Below are positions 1 to 10,342 of a DNA stretch of 16,082 bases, piece by piece (the first letter of the stretch is position 1; each line of letters begins with the position of its first letter). The notes below the pieces were generated by a model. The model did no database searches, was not told the origin of the DNA, and saw only the letters and a program-made list of their open reading frames with translations. The stretch comes from a bacterium. GTDB lineage: Bacteria; Hydrothermota; Tepidihabitantia; Tepidihabitantales; Tepidihabitantaceae. The DNA is taken from positions 1-16,082 of the forward strand of contig JAWOHE010000070.1 in NCBI GenBank assembly GCA_046485285.1, in the 5' to 3' direction. A program made the translations under genes and the position numbers.

Positions 1-59
1 ACTACAAGTACAACTACAGCTACGCGCACCGGACCCCGTCGGGCGAGATAAAGAAGTAG
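1..59 (+). CDS. 3' end of an upstream gene with a Tyr-rich C-terminal tail (possibly a BY-kinase of the Wzc/CpsD type); partial
   Basis: Frame 3 reads YKYNYSYAHRTPSGEIKK then TAG (57-59) with high-GC3 codons. A C-terminal Tyr cluster is typical of bacterial tyrosine autokinases, but only 18 codons are visible. Confidence 0.35.
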   Translation, partial: YKYNYSYAHRTPSGEIKK

Positions 60-1048: not shown

Positions 1049-2866
1049 TCAGGTCTCGCGGTAGTGTGAGGCCTGGGCCAGGTACATCCGGGCGTAGAGC
1101 TCGCCGAGCTCGAGCAGTTCATGGTGCGTTCCCTGTTCCCGGATCCGCCCCTTGTCGAGCACGTAGATGTAGTCGGCGAGCTGGACCGTTGAGAACCGGT
1201 GGCTGACGAGGACCGCGCTCCGGCCGTCGAGAACCCCGCGGAACTGCTCGAATAGTTCGGCCTCGGCAAGCGGGTCGAGCGCGCTGGTCGGCTCGTCGAG
1301 CACGACGAGCTGGGAGCGGCGCATGAACGCCCGGGCCAGCGCGACCTTCTGCCACTCGCCGATGCTCAGCTCGAGGCCGGACTCGAACCAGCGGCCGAGC
1401 GGCGTGTCGTAACCCTGGGGCAGGCGGCTTATTGCCGCGTCGGCCCCGGCGCGCTTCGCGGCCGCGACGATCCTCGCCCGGTCCGGCTCGGCCGCCGCGT
1501 CGCCGAGCCAGATGTTCTCCCAGGCCGGGAGCTGGTACTGGACGAAGTCCTGAAGGATGACGCTGACCTCCCGGCGCCAGCGGGCCGGCTCGAGCCGGCG
1601 GATGTCGATGCCGTCGACGGTGATCTGGCCGGTGCCGGGGTCGTAGAGCCGGCAGAGGAGCTTGACGAGCGTCGTCTTGCCCGAGCCGTTCGCGCCGACC
1701 AGCGCAACGACCTGGCCCGGGGCAATCGCCAGGCTGACCGCGTCGAGCGCCGGCCGGGAACTGCCCGGGTAGGCGAAGCTGACGCCTTCGAACGCGATGC
1801 CCCGCGCGAACCGTGCCGGGACCGGGAGCGGCTTCGCCGGCGCGGTGACCCTCGGCTGGAGGTCGAGGAACTCGTAGAAGTTGGCGAGGAAGAGGTTGTC
1901 CTCGTAGAGCCCGGCGAGGCCGGCGAGGATGGCCGAGAGCGAGTTGGCCGCGAGCTGGAAGGCCGAGTAGTACATCACCAGGCTGCCGATGGTGATCGTC
2001 CCCCGCCAGGTCTGCCAGGCGATGTAGACGAGCGTGCCGAAGGTGGCGACCGTCACCGCGGCCTGGGCGAGCAGGCCGGCCGCGCTGCGGCGCCGGGCCA
2101 GTACCAGCCTCGCCCGGCGCAGTTGCCGGCGGAGTTCGCGGTAGCGCTGGCGGAAGAGCGCGCCGATGTCGAAGAGCCGGAGTTCCTTGGCCGGGAACGA
2201 GTTCGTCAGCAGCCAGTGGTAGTACCAGGCCCGGCGTTCCTTCTCGGTCTGCTCACGCTCGAAACGGTAGAGCCGGCGCGCGTGGACCATCCGGACGACC
2301 GCGCCGGGCAGGGCGACGACGACGAGCACGAGGGCGACCAGCGGGCTGAGCGCGAAGAGCAGGCCGGCGATGCCGGCCAGCGAGACCGCGCCCCGGCCGA
2401 CCTGGACCAGCCGGTTGACGATGTTGACCGGCCGGTGCATCGCGTCACCCTGGGCCCGGTGGAGGGTGTCGTGGTAGCGGGGGTCCTCGTAGTAGCCGAG
2501 GTCCATCGCGACCGACTGGCCGTGGACGATGTCGGTCACCTTGTCGGACAGCACGAGCGACTGGGCCTGGCCGACGAGCTCGGCCAGCGAGTGCGCGATG
2601 GCGGTGAGGAGCGCCGCGGCCGCGGCAACGCCGACCCAGACGAGCACGCGCTGGAAGCCGGCCGGTCCGCTGCCGGCCGCGATGCCGGCCTGCAGCAGGT
2701 CGACGACCTGCTTGATGGCGTAGAGCCCGGCCAGCGGCAGGAGCCCCTGGACCGCGACGAGGGCCGCGTTGGCGACCGCGAGCCCGGGCGCGCTGGCCCA
2801 GACGAGGCGGACCGCCCGGTCGAGGCGCAGGCCCTTCCGGACCGGGTCCTTCGGCCTCGCGCTCAC
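1049..2866 (-). CDS. ABC exporter, fused permease/ATP-binding protein (probable RiPP exporter, no C39 peptidase domain)
   Basis: 605 aa. N-terminal transmembrane domain, Walker A GANGSGKTT, signature variant LSIGEWQ, Walker B/D-loop VVLDEPTSALD and H-loop SHR. GTGA overlap with the upstream gene. Confidence 0.95.
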   Translation of the reverse strand: MSARPKDPVRKGLRLDRAVRLVWASAPGLAVANAALVAVQGLLPLAGLYAIKQVVDLLQAGIAAGSGPAGFQRVLVWVGVAAAAALLTAIAHSLAELVGQAQSLVLSDKVTDIVHGQSVAMDLGYYEDPRYHDTLHRAQGDAMHRPVNIVNRLVQVGRGAVSLAGIAGLLFALSPLVALVLVVVALPGAVVRMVHARRLYRFEREQTEKERRAWYYHWLLTNSFPAKELRLFDIGALFRQRYRELRRQLRRARLVLARRRSAAGLLAQAAVTVATFGTLVYIAWQTWRGTITIGSLVMYYSAFQLAANSLSAILAGLAGLYEDNLFLANFYEFLDLQPRVTAPAKPLPVPARFARGIAFEGVSFAYPGSSRPALDAVSLAIAPGQVVALVGANGSGKTTLVKLLCRLYDPGTGQITVDGIDIRRLEPARWRREVSVILQDFVQYQLPAWENIWLGDAAAEPDRARIVAAAKRAGADAAISRLPQGYDTPLGRWFESGLELSIGEWQKVALARAFMRRSQLVVLDEPTSALDPLAEAELFEQFRGVLDGRSAVLVSHRFSTVQLADYIYVLDKGRIREQGTHHELLELGELYARMYLAQASHYRET

Positions 2867-4077
2867 GGCCTGCCCGTCCTGAGCCAGCGGACCAGCAGGT
2901 CTTCCCGGCCGCGCCGGGGGTTGTCGACCATCAGCCGGGCCTGGAGCCGGGCGTGAAGCCAGCCTGCCCGGATGCCGTCGCGGAGCCGCAGGGCATAGAA
3001 GCGGTAGAGATGACGTGCGGTACGGGATGCCGGGTACTTCACGGCCATCGCGTCACGAGAGAGGAAGACATGCTTCCAGACCAGCCTTACCAGGCCGCCA
3101 AGCGACCCGGCGCCCCGGCGGCCGGCGAGCGACCCGGGCGGGCGGTAGTCGGACCGGGCGAGAACGGTCTCGCGCGCGACCTCCAGGACGCGGGGCTCGA
3201 TACCGCCCGGCACGAGCTGTTCGAAGACGTCGCCCGGGACTTCGGCCCCGAGCAGGTCGCGGGCAAGGCCGAGCACGAGGCCCGTGTATCGCGTCGCGCC
3301 CCACTCGCGGGCCCGGCGCGCGAACCGTGGCCAGTCCAACTCGCCGCGGAAGCGGTGAACGGTCTCGGCGACGTCGCAGAGGACGTACGGCACCGCGAGG
3401 CCGTGACGATGGCTGAGATGCAGGCACAGGTGCAGGAGCAAGTCCTCTGGCGAGAGCGCGAGCACCTCGACGCCAGCTATCGCGGCCGGACGGGCCCGGT
3501 CCCAGAGCCCGGCAGCGGCCACTCTGAATGGCCCGGTCGGGCGTTCGATGGCCCAGTGAAGGTCAACGGCGAGGTCGCGAATGAAGAGCGTCGGGAGGCT
3601 GGCGTTCCTGCGGCAGTGTCGCTTGATGTCGACCGGGCGCGCGGAGGCACCGCCAGCGGCGAGCAGGACCGCCCGGGCTCTCGGCAGGTCGGCCTTCCGG
3701 ACCATCAGGTCGGCATCGCTCATCGGCCGGAGTGCGGCGTCGCCGTAGACCGCCTCCGCGAGGAACGCTCCCTTGAGCACGATGACCGGAATGCCGGTAT
3801 CGCGCAGGCCGGCGAGCACCGGCCGAAGGCGACGGTAGAAGCGGGTGTTCCTGCCGGCGCTGTCAAGGTAGGCCAGTCGCAGGCGCTCCCAGGCACCGGC
3901 CGGGACCCGGTCCCGCGCCGAGCCCTGCTTCAGGCGCCTGAAGAGCAGGGGCGCGAGGCGGAGGTGGGCGGCCGCGGCGACGAGGCCGTTCCAGTCGGCG
4001 GCCGGCTCAGAGCCGTCGAACAGGTGACGGAGCAACAGGCTGACCGGCCGGGTGTCGACGGCCGAGCGAGCGTTCAA
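2863..4077 (-). CDS. Nucleotidyltransferase family protein (NTP_transf_5-like)
   Basis: Motifs IPVIVLKG, LRPMSDADL (DxD), VDLHW and LSPEDLLLHLCLH. Paralog of 13936..15195. The TTG start overlaps the upstream stop (TTGA). Confidence 0.88.
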   Translation of the reverse strand: MNARSAVDTRPVSLLLRHLFDGSEPAADWNGLVAAAAHLRLAPLLFRRLKQGSARDRVPAGAWERLRLAYLDSAGRNTRFYRRLRPVLAGLRDTGIPVIVLKGAFLAEAVYGDAALRPMSDADLMVRKADLPRARAVLLAAGGASARPVDIKRHCRRNASLPTLFIRDLAVDLHWAIERPTGPFRVAAAGLWDRARPAAIAGVEVLALSPEDLLLHLCLHLSHRHGLAVPYVLCDVAETVHRFRGELDWPRFARRAREWGATRYTGLVLGLARDLLGAEVPGDVFEQLVPGGIEPRVLEVARETVLARSDYRPPGSLAGRRGAGSLGGLVRLVWKHVFLSRDAMAVKYPASRTARHLYRFYALRLRDGIRAGWLHARLQARLMVDNPRRGREDLLVRWLRTGRP

Positions 4078-5648
4078 TCCCGCGCTTCGCTGCCGGAGGC
4101 GAGACTGATAACGGCCTGCCTGAGGGTCTGCTCAGCCACGAACAGGTGGAACGGCGGCCGAATGTACCACCGCCTGAGCCGAAAGTCGTAGTGCCCGACC
4201 ACCTGCCCGCCCATCAGCAGTTTGAGGAACGCCCGGTAGCGGTTGCCGAAGCGCACCGGCCTGGGCCGGAGCCGTCGCGGGAGAAGGCGGTCGAACGGGC
4301 CGAGACCGGCAACAGCGCGGTACAGCGTGTGAGGGAGACGGCCCGCGCTTCTCCGGATGCCCCGGCCCAGGCGCACGCAGCGAAGGACAAGGAGACCTCG
4401 CCACCCGCCGTGGACAACCCGGCGCTTGTCTCCGCGCTGGGCGGCGATCACGCGGCCGGTGATGCTGTCGGCCGGCAGGACCCAGGTGTCATCTTCCCGG
4501 TTGTTGTCGCCGCGGGTGCGCAGGCCGCCCTGCGCATGGCCGGGGACCGGGGACCGGCGACTGACCGAGACTAAGCGGTGCACGACCGTCTTGCCGGTCT
4601 CGGGCGACCTGAAGCAGACGACGTCGCCCGGGCGCACCCGGGCCGGACCGTACGGCCTGACTTCGAGAAGGTCGGGCTCGTCGAGGGTGGGAAGCATGCT
4701 GGTGCCCGTGCAGACCACGCGCAACGCGTCGTCAGCCGTAAGCGAGTCGACCGACACCGGGTCCGGCCGGGGGGCGTCCACACAGGGACCGGGCAAGTCG
4801 CCGACGGGCAGGACCCGCTCGATTTCCTCCCAGAACCTGCCCTCGAGGCTGAACTTCAGCGACCAGGCCGGGATGGCCGCGGCAAGCCCCCGGGCAGTCC
4901 TCAGCGCCTCGATGCAGAGCCGGTGGATGACGTCGACGTCGTTCAGGACGAACAGCACTTCCCGGGCGAGTTCCTCCGCGGACTCCATCGCCAGGGCGGT
5001 CACCCGCGTACCGTGGAGCGGCTCGAGTCGGTCAAACGGCGACTGGTCGAGGAAGAAGAGCGCCCGGAGCGGAACGGCGCGCTCTACGGCCCAAGAGCCG
5101 CCCGGGCCACCATAGAGGAAACGGCTCCAGGTCGGCCAGGGGTGAGCCCAGAAACGGCCCCTGCCGTCGGGCACGACCAGCGTCATGTCGTCGGACAGCG
5201 AGCGCCAGGGCGCGGGCAGGCGGCGGCTGGCAGTGCTCTTGCCGACCTCGGCCGGCCCGCCCATTATGAAACCGCTCCCCCGGTACTCGGCCAGCGCGCC
5301 GTGGAACAGCATCCCGCCCCGGGCCAGGGTCTCGCGGGCAATGAAGGATGCGATTCGCCGCAGTTGGGCAACCCGGGTCTCCTTGTCTGTCGGCGGGGCA
5401 ATCCGACACGCGGCTGCGCCGGGCGTCTCCGGTCCCGTTCGGTCGGACTCACCGGACACGGCGACACACAACTCGCGCCCGGCCTCGCCCGGCCTGCCCG
5501 ACCGGCAGACTGAGCCCAACTGCATTACTCTGCCCAGTTCGGCCACGATCTCCGTGGCCTGGTCATCGGCCGGCCGAATGAGCCACCGCTGGCCATCGGC
5601 CAAGGCAAGTCTCAGCCCAAACAGCAAATACGATGGAGGTGCTGGCAT
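4074..5648 (-). CDS. scmC: ScmC-like HPr-kinase-type P-loop domain fused to a C-terminal S24/S26 (signal peptidase I-like) peptidase
   Basis: N-terminal half has FHGALAE, GPAEVGKST, LSDD and HPWPTWS. C-terminal half has GTSMLP (Ser codon 4698-4700), GDVVCF, VVHRL (His codon 4578-4580) and TRGDNN. Confidence 0.82.
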   Translation of the reverse strand: MPAPPSYLLFGLRLALADGQRWLIRPADDQATEIVAELGRVMQLGSVCRSGRPGEAGRELCVAVSGESDRTGPETPGAAACRIAPPTDKETRVAQLRRIASFIARETLARGGMLFHGALAEYRGSGFIMGGPAEVGKSTASRRLPAPWRSLSDDMTLVVPDGRGRFWAHPWPTWSRFLYGGPGGSWAVERAVPLRALFFLDQSPFDRLEPLHGTRVTALAMESAEELAREVLFVLNDVDVIHRLCIEALRTARGLAAAIPAWSLKFSLEGRFWEEIERVLPVGDLPGPCVDAPRPDPVSVDSLTADDALRVVCTGTSMLPTLDEPDLLEVRPYGPARVRPGDVVCFRSPETGKTVVHRLVSVSRRSPVPGHAQGGLRTRGDNNREDDTWVLPADSITGRVIAAQRGDKRRVVHGGWRGLLVLRCVRLGRGIRRSAGRLPHTLYRAVAGLGPFDRLLPRRLRPRPVRFGNRYRAFLKLLMGGQVVGHYDFRLRRWYIRPPFHLFVAEQTLRQAVISLASGSEARD

Positions 5649-5753
5649 CTTGTCCGGCTAGGCGCTCGCGCTACACATCACGACAGCTTCTCCGCTACCG
5701 ACCGCAAGCCACCTGCTACGGAATCAGTTGTCTGCCGCTACCGACTCAACGGT

Positions 5754-5768
5754 GGGGCGGGCCGCCCC
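5754..5768 (-). terminator. Short GC hairpin downstream of precursor 1
   Basis: GGGGCG-ggc-CGCCCC, 12 nt beyond the stop codon. There is no U-tract, so it may stabilise the transcript rather than terminate it. Confidence 0.3.
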
Positions 5769-5780
5769 TCGCGCCGCTAC

Positions 5781-5960
5781 CTAGAAGTTCTGTACGTTAG
5801 AACCGGCCAGGCAGCGGTTCTGGCCCAGAACGCCGAATCCGCTGGCGCATACGTCCTCATTGCCCTCAGGCCCGTCGCCGCACGAAAACGTGCCGGTCGT
5901 GGCATCACTCAGGCGGACGGCGCACGGCGCCGTGTACTTCAGGTCGTCAGACTGGCTCAT
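5781..5960 (-). CDS. RiPP precursor peptide 1 (59 aa, ScmA-like, 3x CxxG); not in the ORF track
   Basis: Manual translation: MSQSDDLKYTAPCAVRLSDATTGTFSCGDGPEGNEDVCASGFGVLGQNRCLAGSNVQNF*. RBS GGAGGT (5966-5971) is 5 nt before the ATG. It has its own promoter and aligns without gaps to precursor 2. Confidence 0.9.
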   Translation of the reverse strand: MSQSDDLKYTAPCAVRLSDATTGTFSCGDGPEGNEDVCASGFGVLGQNRCLAGSNVQNF

Positions 5961-6001
5961 CAGATACCTCCGTGGCGTTGGTTTTGCATCTGCCTGAATT
6001 C

Positions 6002-6030
6002 ATTGTACCCCCCCCCGGCCCTGCTGTCAA
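6002..6030 (-). promoter_or_regulatory. Sigma70-type promoter of precursor 1: TTGACA-17-TACAAT with G9 in the spacer
   Basis: -35 at 6025-6030, -10 at 6002-6007, spacer 6008-6024. Near-consensus in high-GC DNA and conserved upstream of precursor 2. Confidence 0.8.
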
Positions 6031-6078
6031 GAAAAACGGTGGGCCTTCCCCGTCCTCGGATTCACTGCCCGCGACGCT

Positions 6079-6376
6079 TCAATTCCCGGTCCTGCGCTGC
6101 GCCCGGGCAGGGGGAAACAGCCCGCGGCGGACCGCCTCGGCGCACAGAGGGCGGGGCGCAACCAGTTGTCCGCTCTGGACATGGTTGTCGGCCACACAGC
6201 CGGTCCGGCAAACCCGGGCGAATATGCACCGCGCGCAGATGCCCGGGAAGCTGTCCGGGTCGGCCAGGGCCCGGCGTAGACGGAGAACCGTCGGGTTGTT
6301 CAGCCAGATGTCGCGCACGCTGTCTTTGCCCGGTTGCCCGCATGCCACCTCGGGGCAGGTGGAGCCGATGCCGCAC
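6079..6376 (-). pseudogene. Duplicated 3' fragment of the scmF-like gene (SPASM region)
   Basis: 6095-6376 matches 7045-7326 at offset 950 with 10 mismatches in 282 bp by manual count. It lacks the radical SAM core and any clear start. Confidence 0.9.
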
Positions 6377-6394
6377 CGCGTTCCGCGGCCAGGC

Positions 6395-6548
6395 GCCCGA
6401 CCGGCAGACGGGGTCCAACTGCAGGATTGCGCCCAGCTCGGCGGCAAGCGCCGCGGCCCTGTCGTCAGCCGGCCGCAACGAGCCGCCGCTGGCCATCGGC
6501 GAGGACGAGTCTCAGGCCGCGGGATGGATGAGAGGGGCGTGCTGACAT
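6395..6548 (-). pseudogene. Frameshifted 5' remnant of a scmC-like gene
   Basis: From ATG 6548 it reads MSARPSHPSRGLRLVLADGQRRLV, then after a 1-nt insertion RPADDRAAALAAELGAILQLDPVCRSG. This matches the N-terminus of 4074..5648 (GLRLALADGQRWLIRPADDQATEIVAELGRVMQLGSVCRSG), about 73% nt identity by manual count. Confidence 0.85.
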
Positions 6549-6650
6549 CGGAGTCGACGCTGCACCTGCGTCAAACGACAAACCGGCCAGTTCGCCACTG
6601 GCCGGATACCATTCGCTACCTAATCAGTTGTCTTCTTCTGCCGGTGCAAC

Positions 6651-6678
6651 CGCGACGCGGCCGGGCATTCGCGTCGCG
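6651..6678 (-). terminator. 9-bp GC stem-loop immediately after the precursor 2 stop codon
   Basis: CGCGACGCG (6651-6659) pairs with CGCGTCGCG (6670-6678) around a 10-nt loop. No clear U-tract. Confidence 0.5.
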
Positions 6679-6855
6679 CTAGTTCTGGACGGTGGAGCCG
6701 GTGTTGCAGATGTTGATCTGCTGGACCGCGAACCCGCTCTCGCACAGGTCGGCGTTGCCATTGCGGCCGTTCGTGCACGCGAACGTGCCGGTCTGGGCAT
6801 CGCTCAGACGCACGGCACACGGAGCCATATATGTCGAATTGTCGGACTTCACCAC
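6679..6855 (-). CDS. RiPP precursor peptide 2 (58 aa, ScmA-like, 3x CxxG)
   Basis: Likely start is GTG at 6855, 5 nt after GGAGGT (6861-6866), inside track ORF 6679..6981. Sequence: MVKSDNSTYMAPCAVRLSDAQTGTFACTNGRNGNADLCESGFAVQQINICNTGSTVQN*. It is 35/58 identical to precursor 1. Confidence 0.9.
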   Translation of the reverse strand: MVKSDNSTYMAPCAVRLSDAQTGTFACTNGRNGNADLCESGFAVQQINICNTGSTVQN

Positions 6856-6952
6856 TTCATACCTCCGATTCGCGGACTCCGCGAGAGCCCGCTCATTTTT
6901 GTCTAAAACGAACTGCTGCCAACTGGCGACCCTGTGCCAGTTGAACTGAGAC

Positions 6953-6981
6953 ATAATACCCCCCCCGGCGTCTGCTGTCAA
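6953..6981 (-). promoter_or_regulatory. Sigma70-type promoter of precursor 2: TTGACA-17-TATTAT with G8 in the spacer
   Basis: -35 at 6976-6981 (overlapping the scmF stop codon), -10 at 6953-6958. Confidence 0.78.
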
Positions 6982-8186
6982 GAGATACCTTCCTCGCCAC
7001 CGACCCGGGCTCCAGAGTCAACGCCGCCCGGGCTACCGGCCCGCCGCTGCGCCCGGGCAGGGGGAAAGAGCCCGCGGCGGACCGCCTCGGCGCACAGGGG
7101 ACGGGGCGCAACCAGTTGTCCGCTCTGGACATAGTTGTCGGCCACGCAGCCGGTCCGGCAAACCCGGGCGAATATGCACCGCGCGCAGATGCCCGGGAAG
7201 CTGTCCGGGTCGGCCAGGGCCCGGCGCAGACGGAGAACCGTCGGGTTGTTCAGCCAGATGTCGCGCACGCTGTCTTTGCCCAGTTGCCCGTATGTCAACT
7301 CGGGGCAGGTGGAGCCGATGCCGCACAGGGCGTACCGGTTCGTGCCGAGAATGCCCAGAATCCCGAGCACGCCGCAGTCACCGCAGGAACCGCCCGAGCG
7401 TCCCAGACGGCGGCGCGACGACAGGGCCGGGGGTATGTTGAGGATGACACCAACCGGCGCGCGCGGATGCAGATCCTCGTCAACGTAGCGCGCCAGCTCC
7501 ATCGTCTCGTCGAAGTCCAGGGCCTCGCCGCGCTCGTGCATCGTGATTCCGCGGCCGGTCCGGGTCACCGGGTTGAGCTTTACCGATGCCGCGCCGCGTT
7601 CCGCGGCCAGGAGCACGACCGGCTCGACCTGCGCGCGGTTCCCGCGGTGCACGCTCATGATGACCTGCGTGTTCTTGAACCCCGCATCCGCCAGGTGGGA
7701 AAGCCCTTTCAGGGCCGCGTCGAACGCGCCCTTGACGTTCCGAAAGGCGTCGTGGGTCCGGGCATCCGACCCGTCCAGGCTGACAGAAACAAAGGTGACC
7801 CGCGTCTTGTCCTTGAGGTGACGGGCGGTCTCGGCGGTCAGCAGGGTGCCGTTTGTCTCCATGAGGAGGCTCAGTCCCTCAGCGGTCAGCAGGTCGACGA
7901 CCTCCAGGAACCGGGGATGGAGCATCGGCTCGCCGCCGGTCAGCTTGGCCGAGCCCAGGCCTAGCGTCTTGCCTTCGCGCACCGCCTCGCGCAGGGAGTC
8001 CACGTCCACGCAGTCACCCGGGTCAGGCTTCCCGTCAATGAACCGGGGCACGATCCAGCAGTGACGGCAGCGCAGGTTGCAGCCGCTGGACAGGTAGATG
8101 TAGAACGAGCGCAGGGGGGGTACGCCCTCGGGCAGGTCAGGCGGCGGTGCCGGCGTCACGGGCGCGTCGGCCGGCTCACTCGGCAT
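6978..8186 (-). CDS. scmF: Radical SAM/SPASM peptide maturase, ScmF-like
   Basis: CNLRCRHCWI (CxxxCxxC), LTGGEP and ETNG. SPASM cysteines in CGVLGILGILG...ALCGIG...CARC...C...C...C. Position in the cassette fits. Confidence 0.85.
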   Translation of the reverse strand: MPSEPADAPVTPAPPPDLPEGVPPLRSFYIYLSSGCNLRCRHCWIVPRFIDGKPDPGDCVDVDSLREAVREGKTLGLGSAKLTGGEPMLHPRFLEVVDLLTAEGLSLLMETNGTLLTAETARHLKDKTRVTFVSVSLDGSDARTHDAFRNVKGAFDAALKGLSHLADAGFKNTQVIMSVHRGNRAQVEPVVLLAAERGAASVKLNPVTRTGRGITMHERGEALDFDETMELARYVDEDLHPRAPVGVILNIPPALSSRRRLGRSGGSCGDCGVLGILGILGTNRYALCGIGSTCPELTYGQLGKDSVRDIWLNNPTVLRLRRALADPDSFPGICARCIFARVCRTGCVADNYVQSGQLVAPRPLCAEAVRRGLFPPARAQRRAGSPGGVDSGARVGGEEGIS

Positions 8187-9321
8187 CTGGAGCCTCCTCG
8201 CCCTTGAAGATTCGATAGCAGACCAGCGGGTCGCGCGCGTTCAGCCTGCCGTACCGGGCCGCCACCGTCGCCGGGCAGCCGCCGGTGCAGAAGCCGGCAT
8301 AGCGGCAGTCCCGGCACTCGGGCAGGAACGAGAGCGGGATGTCGCGGCGGTAGCGCAAGGCGTTTATCGCCGGGCTCGAGCGCCAGGCCTCGGACAGGGA
8401 GTGCAGGCCGACGACGCCCATCACCAGCTTCGGCAGCAGGGAGCAGGGCACCATCGTGCCGTCGTGCAGTACCGCCATGTTCGAGAAGACGCAGCCACAG
8501 GCAGAGAGCGTGCCTCGTCCGGGCAGGCTGTCCCGGCCGTGCGCGAGCGAGTCCTCAATCACGGCGAAGCGCCGGGCCAGGTCCAGCGGGCCGGCCGAAG
8601 CGTTTATCCGGCCGTTGTACTTCTCGTTCAGCCTGGTCAGCGATGCCATCGCACGCCGGCGGTCGGCAGGGGTGAGGACAACGCTGCTGCCATCGCAGCG
8701 CGCCGAGCCCATTTGCGCGACCTCGTTGGTGCTGAAGCCCGCGAGCCCGACGTCCTCGAAGAGCAGGCGGGCGATGTTCTCGATGTCGTCGAGGTTGGCC
8801 CGGTTCACGGTGACGCGCACGGTCATCGGGAACCCGGCGCCCTTGAGCAGTCGCAGGCCGGCGAGCGCCCGGTCAAAGCTCTTCGGGGGACGGCTCCGGT
8901 CGTGGATTTCGGCCCGCGACCCGTCAATCGAGACCTGGATCGAATCCAGGCGCAGGCGGCGCTTGCCGACTGCGAAGGCCCGCAACGTGTCCTCGCTGAT
9001 GAGCGTGCCGTTGGTCAGTATCGAGTAGCGCATCCGATTGGCTATGATGCCGTCAATCAACTCGAAGAGGTCCTGCCGCATGAAGGTCTCGCCCCCAGAG
9101 AGTGACACGCGCTGGACCCCGAGCCGGCCCGCCTCCTCGAACAGGCCGTGCCAGCGCGCGGCCGGCATGTCGCTCAACGCCGCCATCTCGTCGGCGTAGA
9201 AGCAGTAGCGGCACTTGAGGTTACAGCGCCCGGTGATGGAGAGGTTCAACTGCCGCGGGGCGCGCGGCAGGCCGGGCGGCGGCACGGTCAGGTCAGGGAC
9301 CGGCGGGGCTTCAGTGCTCAT
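8176..9321 (-). CDS. scmE: Radical SAM/SPASM peptide maturase, ScmE-like
   Basis: ITGRCNLKCRYCF, LSGGE and LTNG. SPASM motifs CGC...DGTMVPC...CRDC...CTGGC...C. Confidence 0.85.
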   Translation of the reverse strand: MSTEAPPVPDLTVPPPGLPRAPRQLNLSITGRCNLKCRYCFYADEMAALSDMPAARWHGLFEEAGRLGVQRVSLSGGETFMRQDLFELIDGIIANRMRYSILTNGTLISEDTLRAFAVGKRRLRLDSIQVSIDGSRAEIHDRSRPPKSFDRALAGLRLLKGAGFPMTVRVTVNRANLDDIENIARLLFEDVGLAGFSTNEVAQMGSARCDGSSVVLTPADRRRAMASLTRLNEKYNGRINASAGPLDLARRFAVIEDSLAHGRDSLPGRGTLSACGCVFSNMAVLHDGTMVPCSLLPKLVMGVVGLHSLSEAWRSSPAINALRYRRDIPLSFLPECRDCRYAGFCTGGCPATVAARYGRLNARDPLVCYRIFKGEEAPDAE

Positions 9322-9595
9322 CAGGCGAGGCGATGATGAAGTCAGGAGTCAGCGACTGGATAAACTTCTCCGCGTCCTGCGCGGCCTGTTCCGGCGTCAC
9401 GTCCGGGTAGGTGGCCGCAACGTGGCCGGCAATCTCGGCAAGGGTCCGGGGCGCGGCGAGCAATGCCCAGATGGCACGGCCCGTGCGGTTGAGCAGGACG
9501 GTGTTGTCCTTGTCCGGGTTGTAGAGCATCGCCCCGTCCTCGCCCTCGTCGACGCAGGAGACAACGTCGCTCGCGCGGTAGGTTTTTTCGCTCAT
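9311..9595 (-). CDS. PqqD family RiPP recognition element (RRE)
   Basis: 94 aa. LYNPD...LLNRTGRAIWALL...TLAEI...Y...DAEKFIQSL is the PqqD-fold pattern. Confidence 0.88.
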   Translation of the reverse strand: MSEKTYRASDVVSCVDEGEDGAMLYNPDKDNTVLLNRTGRAIWALLAAPRTLAEIAGHVAATYPDVTPEQAAQDAEKFIQSLTPDFIIASPDEH

Positions 9596-9891
9596 CAGGC
9601 AGTATCCTCCAGCAGCACTTCTTGTCCGACAAAGCCCTCCTCGACCAGCTTCAACAGCAGGGCGCGGACGTCCTCGGCCACAGTGTCCGGCGCGTCCGGG
9701 AAGCGGCCGCGGATTTCGGCGACAATCTCCCCGGTCGTGCGCCAGCCGTCAACCAGGTTCCAGACCAGCGCCCCGGTGTGGTTCACGGCCATCGCGCCCG
9801 CGGTGTCCGGGTTCACCAGCAGGGTCCAGCCGTCAGCGCCTTCTTCCCGCACCACTGCCGGGTTGGCTATCGGCCGGTCCGGAACTGTCAT
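9595..9891 (-). CDS. scmD: PqqD family RRE, ScmD-like
   Basis: 98 aa. PIANPAVVREE...LVNPDT...VNHTGALVWNLVDG...DVRALLLKLVEEGFV. Confidence 0.85.
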   Translation of the reverse strand: MTVPDRPIANPAVVREEGADGWTLLVNPDTAGAMAVNHTGALVWNLVDGWRTTGEIVAEIRGRFPDAPDTVAEDVRALLLKLVEEGFVGQEVLLEDTA

Positions 9892-10056: not shown

Positions 10057-10084
10057 TTGACAGCCAAGCCCGTCGACATACAAT
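10057..10084 (+). promoter_or_regulatory. Sigma70-type promoter of precursor 3 and the right operon: TTGACA-16-TACAAT
   Basis: TTGACA at 10057-10062, TACAAT at 10079-10084. Confidence 0.72.
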
Positions 10085-10162
10085 GTTGTCCGGCTATTTG
10101 GAGAATACCGTTATGTTCGATGACAGGCTTTTCGACCACGGAGCAGGCCCGGAGGAGGAGTG

Positions 10163-10342
10163 ATGGATGATCGAGACCGCAAGACCTGGCAGACGCCGAA
10201 GCTCAAGGTCCTCGCGAGGGTGAGGTCAGAGGAGAGAGTCTTGGAGGCCTGTAAGACCCCCATCAAGAACGGCCCGTCCGCAGCCGTGGCTTGCTACAAA
10301 GGCTCCTCGGGACAGGAGTGCGAAGTGATAGCCAATTCGTAG
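10163..10342 (+). CDS. RiPP precursor peptide 3 (59-60 aa; WxxPxL leader, 3 Cys, C-terminal Ser)
   Basis: MDDRDRKTWQTPKLKVLARVRSEERVLEACKTPIKNGPSAAVACYKGSSGQECEVIANS*. RBS GGAGGAGG at 10151-10158, alternative GTG start at 10160. First gene of the radical SAM operon. Confidence 0.85.
   Translation: MDDRDRKTWQTPKLKVLARVRSEERVLEACKTPIKNGPSAAVACYKGSSGQECEVIANS

Follow-up and report, generated by a model that had tools for sequence, protein, structure and literature searches.

The 16,082-bp contig analysed here as a whole (the window; GenBank JAWOHE010000070.1 of assembly GCA_046485285.1, family Tepidihabitantaceae; contig C67 of genome G000, 2.34 Mb, 69% G+C, 102 contigs) carries, on its minus strand, two promoters in which a run of eight or nine G residues lies between the -35 and -10 hexamers, each promoter preceding a gene for a small precursor peptide. 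From the comparisons below, we give somewhat better than an even chance to the run being both a part of the promoter and a slippery filler of its spacer, in a promoter class common to this family. This layout probably makes the promoter stronger and also allows its output to drift as the run slips. It belongs to a known kind, that of homopolymer-tract promoters; what is new is that the run is fixed to the -10 hexamer, strand-specific and lineage-wide in uncultivated bacteria, and that it precedes two peptide-precursor genes.

Two near-consensus promoters and their common origin

Both elements described in an earlier note on this DNA, TTGACA-17-TACAAT with G9 and TTGACA-17-TATTAT with G8, were found where it had placed them, on the minus strand (Table 1, promoters 1 and 2). 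Each matches the consensus at 11 of 12 positions with a spacer of 17 bp, in agreement with a sigma-70-type promoter (hexamers near TTGACA/TATAAT, 16-18 bp apart), and each holds a homopolymer run of about seven or more residues between its hexamers. The canonical TG at -15/-14 is present in neither, GG standing there instead. Promoter-like sites are also in excess in the window (5 observed against 0.7 expected from shuffles). On balance, both sites appear to be genuine sigma-70-type promoters close to the consensus, at which RNA polymerase would initiate and which are each dedicated to one of two paralogous precursor-peptide genes. The TGA stop of the ScmF-like gene upstream (6980-6978) lies inside the -35 hexamer of promoter 2, so that transcription of the upstream operon runs through this promoter.

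At the scale of the genome, 37 G/C runs of at least 8 residues were counted, of which six end 0-1 nt before a TAnnnT word, about 0.1 being expected from the frequency of this word (0.0016 per position). Pairs of the type TTGACA-N-TAnnnT number 171, 74 and 35 at spacers of 16, 17 and 18 bp, 4 at 15 bp and 4 at 19 bp, with a background of 0-9 elsewhere. The spacer range of this genome is thus 16-18 bp, 16 bp being the commonest, and one slip in either direction does not take a 17-bp promoter out of this range. The preponderance of 16-bp spacers, more than twice as common as those of 17 bp, is unlike the 17-bp optimum of Escherichia coli. A spacer G-run of at least seven residues is found in only 4 of the 280 TTGACA-16..18-TAnnnT sites: the two of the window, one on contig C72 (G6CCG8), which precedes a precursor gene of the type found on the right-hand side of the window, and one on contig C43, which precedes a secreted beta-propeller gene. 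Two other explanations of the runs were set aside: a SigB/SigF-like 'GGGTA' -10, as both sites have a perfect TTGACA at the housekeeping distance, and, judged by length, a G-quadruplex in the spacer, a single G8-9 run being too short for a stable one.

The two promoters lie in a duplicated unit. Between them, positions 6086-6376 match the 3' end of the ScmF-like gene (7036-7326) at 96% identity, and positions 6395-6518 match the 5' end of the ScmC-like gene (5496-5618) at 77-83%; such a junction would be expected after a tandem duplication reaching from inside ScmF to inside ScmC. The syntenic contig of the related genome G205 carries a single precursor, of the copy-2 type, and has no counterpart of window positions 5619-6623. 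Given the tandem duplication and the single precursor of G205, the two G-runs of the window count as one origin. The -35 hexamer, the G-run and four of the six -10 positions are kept between the copies, and the divergence of the nearby DNA claimed earlier was confirmed: the copies differ over most of the roughly 50 nt upstream, and an indel of 56 nt separates their 5' untranslated regions (5'UTRs). The spacers align without gaps, with 4 mismatches in 17 positions, one of which is a C against a G at the 5' edge of the run. The constancy of the 17-bp spacer despite unequal runs, which the earlier note had emphasized, is consequently true but uninformative and carries no weight, the G9/G8 difference being this substitution. 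Within the unit 5619-6623, the ScmF fragment is 96% identical to its counterpart, the ScmC fragment 77-83% and the precursors about 70%; these uneven identities suggest gene conversion, or recombination between two old alleles.

Table 1. Features of the window, with the strand on which they are read
Feature	Position	Strand	Remarks
Promoter 1, -35 hexamer	6025-6030 (6030-6025)	minus	TTGACA
Promoter 1, G9 run	6008-6016	minus	-10-proximal half of the 17-bp spacer, abuts the -10; C-run on the plus strand
Promoter 1, -10 hexamer	6002-6007 (6007-6002)	minus	TACAAT
Promoter 2, -35 hexamer	6976-6981 (6981-6976)	minus	TTGACA
Promoter 2, G8 run	6959-6966	minus	in the 17-bp spacer, abuts the -10
Promoter 2, -10 hexamer	6953-6958 (6958-6953)	minus	TATTAT
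Precursor peptide gene 1	5781-5960	minus	59 aa, 4 Cys; GGAGG Shine-Dalgarno 5 nt before the ATG
Precursor peptide gene 2	6679-6855	minus	58 aa; GTG start, second in-frame GTG at 6852
Structured 5'UTR of precursor 2	6856-6946	minus	three hairpins; z = -2.9
Terminator-like hairpin behind precursor 2	6583-6605	minus	9 pairs, then a T-rich tail
Duplication relic	6086-6540	minus	5' ScmC-like fragment (6395-6540) joined to 3' ScmF-like fragment (6086-6405)
Two PqqD-like genes	9311-9891		cluster read leftwards
ScmE-like radical SAM/SPASM gene	8176-9321		370 bits, cut-off 400
ScmF-like radical SAM/SPASM gene	6978-8186	minus	directly upstream of promoter 2; TIGR04251, 351 bits, cut-off 400
ScmC-like domain fused to a signal-peptidase-like domain	4074-5648	minus	downstream of precursor 1; TIGR04249, 160.6 bits, cut-off 125
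NTP_transf_5 gene	2863-4077		cluster read leftwards
ABC exporter	1049-2866		cluster read leftwards
Right-hand precursor gene	10163-10342	plus	different kind; second, divergent cluster
Right-hand precursor promoter	10057-10084	plus	TTGACA-16-TACAAT, without G-run (comparison)

G-run promoters in relatives and across the family

The phylum set used for comparison comprised 272 genomes, 44 of the family and 228 others. A profile of the precursors identified homologues in 12 other genomes, all of the same family, and in a metagenome locus (L003). A TTGAC-type promoter lies 73-125 nt before the start in 13 of the 19 homologous precursor loci from these 12 genomes, and L003 likewise has one before its precursor; the placement of the promoter before the gene is thus conserved in homologous loci, as for a sigma-70-type promoter. 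Among the 16 precursor promoters compared (13 from relatives, that of L003 and the two of the window), seven have a spacer G-run of at least seven residues (the two of the window, L005, L007, L011, L019 and L003), and a further three contain G5-6. Homologous promoters in four genera and in the metagenome locus, whose flanks can no longer be aligned, still have the run. Furthermore, copy 2 (G8, 17 bp) and its orthologue in G205 (G7, 16 bp) share the same 9-nt non-run part of the spacer, and in the alignment these orthologues differ by a true indel of one base within the run. A DNA search of 40 relatives with promoter 1 and precursor 1 gave no match beyond the genome itself, and scans with the precursor alignments returned no relative from the genome contigs and one locus, L003, from the metagenomes. 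The only close homologue of precursor 1 (P0002, 80% identity) is located on a 1340-bp contig, and a precursor-family profile search gave 30 proteins without genomic context, which were not used further.

The arrangement is not restricted to precursor genes. The pattern TTGACA, 7-11 nt, G7, TAnnnT (hereafter the class pattern) occurs at 53 sites in 26 of the 44 family genomes, and at 9 sites in 9 of the 228 other genomes of the phylum. The reversed control has no site in any of the 44 family genomes, and replacing G7 by C7 likewise gives none in these 44; with 53 sites for G7 and none for C7, the run is strand-specific. A search for runs that do not touch the -10 returned 40 rows, from which 12 re-read promoters and 5 with spacers outside 14-18 bp were removed by hand, leaving 23 distinct promoters in which the run ends at 1 nt (8), 2 nt (6), 3 nt (2) or 4-5 nt (2) from the -10, or lies at or near the -35 (5). 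In this hand-filtered set, 53 of 76 runs therefore end exactly at the -10. The class thus has a base- and strand-specific element directly upstream of the -10, as in promoters of the extended -10 type, and such rules of strand and position indicate that the run would be read as sequence and not merely as length.

The genes behind these promoters were surveyed by automatically picking the first plausible open reading frame (ORF) behind 27 class promoters, of which at least those of L053 and L055 look non-coding or wrongly framed. A Pfam match (E <=0.001) was obtained for 14 of the 27 ORFs, the other 13 having none. The matches include four Kelch beta-propellers (one with a FlgD_ig tail), beta-helix/NosD, CARDB, PQQ_2, a pilin N-terminal methylation motif, a T2SSE ATPase, TM2 and an aldehyde dehydrogenase, together with BNR_4, MAM and DUF4082, three matches below their own cut-offs. 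To judge from these domains, the class genes lean towards secreted or surface proteins and small products, a set that fits highly expressed genes and contingency loci alike and does not separate them. An Rfam search of 20 class loci gave only transfer RNA and a group II intron domain (RF02003, 51.7 bits; L064 1683-1782, G216:C436), the latter starting about 150 nt behind the G-run promoter. A thiamine pyrophosphate riboswitch guessed behind the G-run promoter of contig C64 was not confirmed by Rfam and was dropped.

Spacer lengths were profiled for promoters whose run touches the -10, spacers of 7-30 bp being allowed and two 7-bp rows, in which the run touches the -35 and belongs to another -10, being set apart. 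The profile contains 1 promoter at 12 bp, 3 at 14 bp, 4 at 15 bp, 29 at 16 bp, 11 at 17 bp and 6 at 18 bp, and none at 19-30 bp. Short spacers of 12-15 bp hence occur in 8 of 54 class members, at lengths where ordinary consensus pairs are at chance level. In addition, three pairs of paralogues within genomes, sharing flanks of 69-235 nt at 91-97% identity, differ in their run: G7/G8 (97% flank identity), G9/G7 (91%) and G10/G13 (95.5%). Run-length indels between related copies, as in phase-variable tracts, are thus found both in the G205 orthologue and in these three pairs. The short-spacer members and the differences between paralogues argue that slips happen and persist.

Sequence element, slippery spacer or both

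In the reading that we favour, the last Gs of the run would occupy positions -13/-14 and possibly make an extended -10-type contact that aids recognition of the -10, while a G gained or lost would shift the -35 relative to the -10 and leave the junction of the run with the -10 undisturbed. With the run abutting the -10, slips would leave the G at -13/-14 intact and alter only the distance between the hexamers. On the first point, a G-rich region next to the -10, including the extended -10 element, is described across bacteria in PMC12641261, where G at -14/-13 is said to promote transcription in mycobacteria (citing Zhu et al. 2017). On the second, spacers of 16, 17 and 18 bp had a similar upper bound of promoter strength in a synthetic E. 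coli library (PMC8695583). Since the window promoters are at 17 bp, in the middle of the range, and these three lengths give similar strength in that library, a graded retuning is to be expected, as proposed for the sabA tract of Helicobacter pylori, and not a one-step on/off switch of the porA or tp0126 kind: single slips would retune the output in a rheostat-like manner, and silencing would be expected only from contractions of two or more steps. The strengthening of the promoter by the run would be combined with an output that changes with run length.

The closest known systems share one or other of these features. (i) The porA promoter of Neisseria meningitidis has a G homopolymer in a sigma-70-type spacer, and a change of one G alters its transcription (PMC3899988, PMC7864442). 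One-step changes are reported to alter porA output strongly, whereas in the present genome spacers of 16, 17 and 18 bp are all in use; moreover, the run of the present class is strand-specific and mostly fixed to the -10, and the gene encodes a peptide precursor in an uncultivated environmental host. (ii) The tp0126 promoter of Treponema pallidum has a poly-G between -35 and -10 with an optimum at a spacing of 17, and several surface-protein genes (tp0126/tpr) have such runs in the one genome; single isolates contain runs of several lengths (7-11) side by side, and their effects were measured with reporters, whereas the differences seen here are between genomes and between paralogues (PMC7864442). 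(iii) The T-tract 'rheostat' of Helicobacter pylori sabA is a repeat next to the core promoter with a graded and not an on/off output (PMC4081817), but its T-run lies beside the -35 and the G-run described here beside the -10. (iv) Mycobacterial extended -10 promoters with G at -14 or -13 have a non-template G directly upstream of the -10 (PMC12641261); one or two Gs suffice in minimal mycobacterial promoters, whereas here runs of 7-13 accompany a perfect -35, and the ordinary promoters of G000 prefer C at -13.

The earlier note had proposed that the two congeners are independently switchable. In such a true phase-variation switch, slipped-strand mispairing would toggle each precursor independently and cells would make different peptide mixes. 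We regard this as unlikely, although much of its basis stands: the runs do lie in real promoter spacers, G8-G9 runs there are the classical device in porA and tp0126 (PMC3899988, PMC7864442), the class members at 12-15 bp resemble off-state alleles, and run length differs by one G between copy 2 and the G205 orthologue and also among three pairs of recent paralogues. The class genes code mostly for secreted or surface proteins, pilin and small peptides, like those of known contingency loci; the two precursors have separate promoters, and copy 2 is followed by a terminator-like hairpin of its own. However, within the window G9 and G8 differ through a substitution, a one-G slip from the mid-range 17 bp leads to 16 or 18 bp, both well used in the genome, and the G205 orthologue appears to work from 16 bp. 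Mismatch repair genes (MutS, MutL) are present, transcripts running on from the upstream operon could maintain basal expression, and the specificity of strand and position would be superfluous for a device based purely on slippage. That specificity is better accommodated by the opposite view, to which we likewise assign a low probability, namely that the run is a sequence element only (an extended -10-like contact, the mark of another sigma factor or a regulator site) and that length differences are neutral noise. The G-run is opposed to no C-run at all, most runs end exactly at the -10, G-richness is retained in the interrupted runs of L003, L021, L008 and L018, and the in-range class spacers (29/11/6) mirror those of ordinary promoters (171/74/35); a G-rich region beside the -10 is also said to promote transcription (PMC12641261). 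A pure sequence element nevertheless does not account for the eight class members at 12-15 bp, nor for the concentration of indels in the run among recent paralogues; one to three Gs would be enough for a contact at -13/-14, which leaves runs of 7-13 unexplained, and no regulator gene was recognised in the cluster. Finally, the run could have no function and be a chance feature copied by the duplication of about 950 bp and kept by descent. The single origin of the two window promoters, paralogues in a duplicated unit, is compatible with this, but the persistence of the run in four genera and a metagenome locus with non-aligning flanks, the 53 class sites against none for the reversed control, and the retention of -35, run and -10 between window copies with diverged flanks already made it highly improbable.

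Several points weigh against the favoured reading of the run as promoter part and slippery filler. Among ordinary promoters of the genome, 57-59% of the sites have C immediately before the -10 and only 16-20% have G, so that G at -13 is not a general preference of this genome. The run is interrupted or absent in the homologous precursor promoters of L018, L021, L008, L006, L012, L013, L015, L020 and L023; promoter function therefore does not depend on a long uninterrupted run. MutS and MutL are both uninterrupted and should lower slippage rates. The excess of 14-15-bp spacers, found at 7 of 53 class sites against 5 of 281 ordinary sites, speaks for slippage, but the corresponding Fisher p = 7e-4 is only a guide, as the genomes are kin and the ordinary sites come from one genome. 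More generally, all these counts overstate independence, the promoter sets being related by descent and the genomes being kin.

The peptide gene cluster and the possible meaning of the promoter class

Promoters 1 and 2 are located within a leftward-read radical-SAM peptide gene cluster, of the kind making ribosomally synthesized and post-translationally modified peptides (RiPPs), whose two precursors are Cys-rich and 60% identical to each other. Its best matches are to ScmC, ScmD, ScmE and ScmF of the SynChlorMet (SCM) cassette (TIGR04248-TIGR04251). Only ScmC passes its NCBIfam cut-off, ScmE and ScmF remaining below theirs (Table 1), as does ScmD (62, cut-off 100). The cluster is hence SynChlorMet-like but not a SynChlorMet member by the curated thresholds. 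It differs in that ScmC is fused to a signal-peptidase-like domain and in the addition of an NTP_transf_5 gene and an ABC exporter. A literature search for SynChlorMet found no paper with that word.

The start codon of precursor 2 was chosen by comparison with the G205 orthologue. The fold predicted for its 5'UTR was equalled in stability by 2 of 200 shuffles; the G205 orthologue retains the first of the three hairpins, and the whole stretch is absent from copy 1. Rfam gave nothing within the window. The two left-type precursor genes are each followed, some 45 nt beyond the stop codon, by one and the same 10-nt word (5724-5733 and 6624-6633, minus strand), which also occurs behind the L003 precursor and in two loci of genome G008, with GTAGC words repeated nearby; in the window alone, a shuffle test of this word is weak (11 of 200 shuffles reach two matches). 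Short TGAAC-containing repeat arrays at 671-741 and 949-1033 flank the left end of the cluster, and a similar array lies directly upstream of the G-run promoter of contig C72 (L025 3170-3215). Elsewhere in genome G000, a multi-copy element carries a G9 run in a hairpin loop just after an ATG-like start (C39:1615, C94:272, C49:29444), and another, with G7 followed by GGGGATATCCCC repeats, is found at many contig ends.

In the family of the right-hand precursor, only 1 of 12 called promoters, that on contig C72, has a G-run of at least seven residues, and the run is thus not a general mark of peptide-precursor promoters. When the right-hand locus (10057-10342) is compared with its counterpart in G205 (L027), the promoter and leader are nearly identical and the core peptide is very different; by this comparison, the core would be hypervariable behind a fixed leader.

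Literature searches on G-runs fixed to the -10 found no such paper, and a search combining WOR-3 and promoter found nothing related. A bolder view, which we put forward only tentatively and hold to be rather doubtful, is that the family has a device of its own, a non-template G-run welded to the -10 that marks high-output promoters and heritably adjusts their spacing by slippage. If true, this would be a contingency-promoter system in free-living environmental bacteria, with two peptide congeners set independently, and the high-output set would comprise secreted and surface proteins, pilin and peptide precursors.

To our knowledge, nearly all repeat-tuned promoters described so far are those of host-adapted pathogens; in the present case they would be a regular type in one uncultivated environmental family. 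The strict rule of strand and position hints at a lineage-specific contact of RNA polymerase just upstream of the -10. The combination of TTGACA, G-run and TAnnnT could serve as a usable strong-promoter marker in the annotation of these genomes, and at this locus the promoters may determine in what ratio two peptide natural-product congeners are made.

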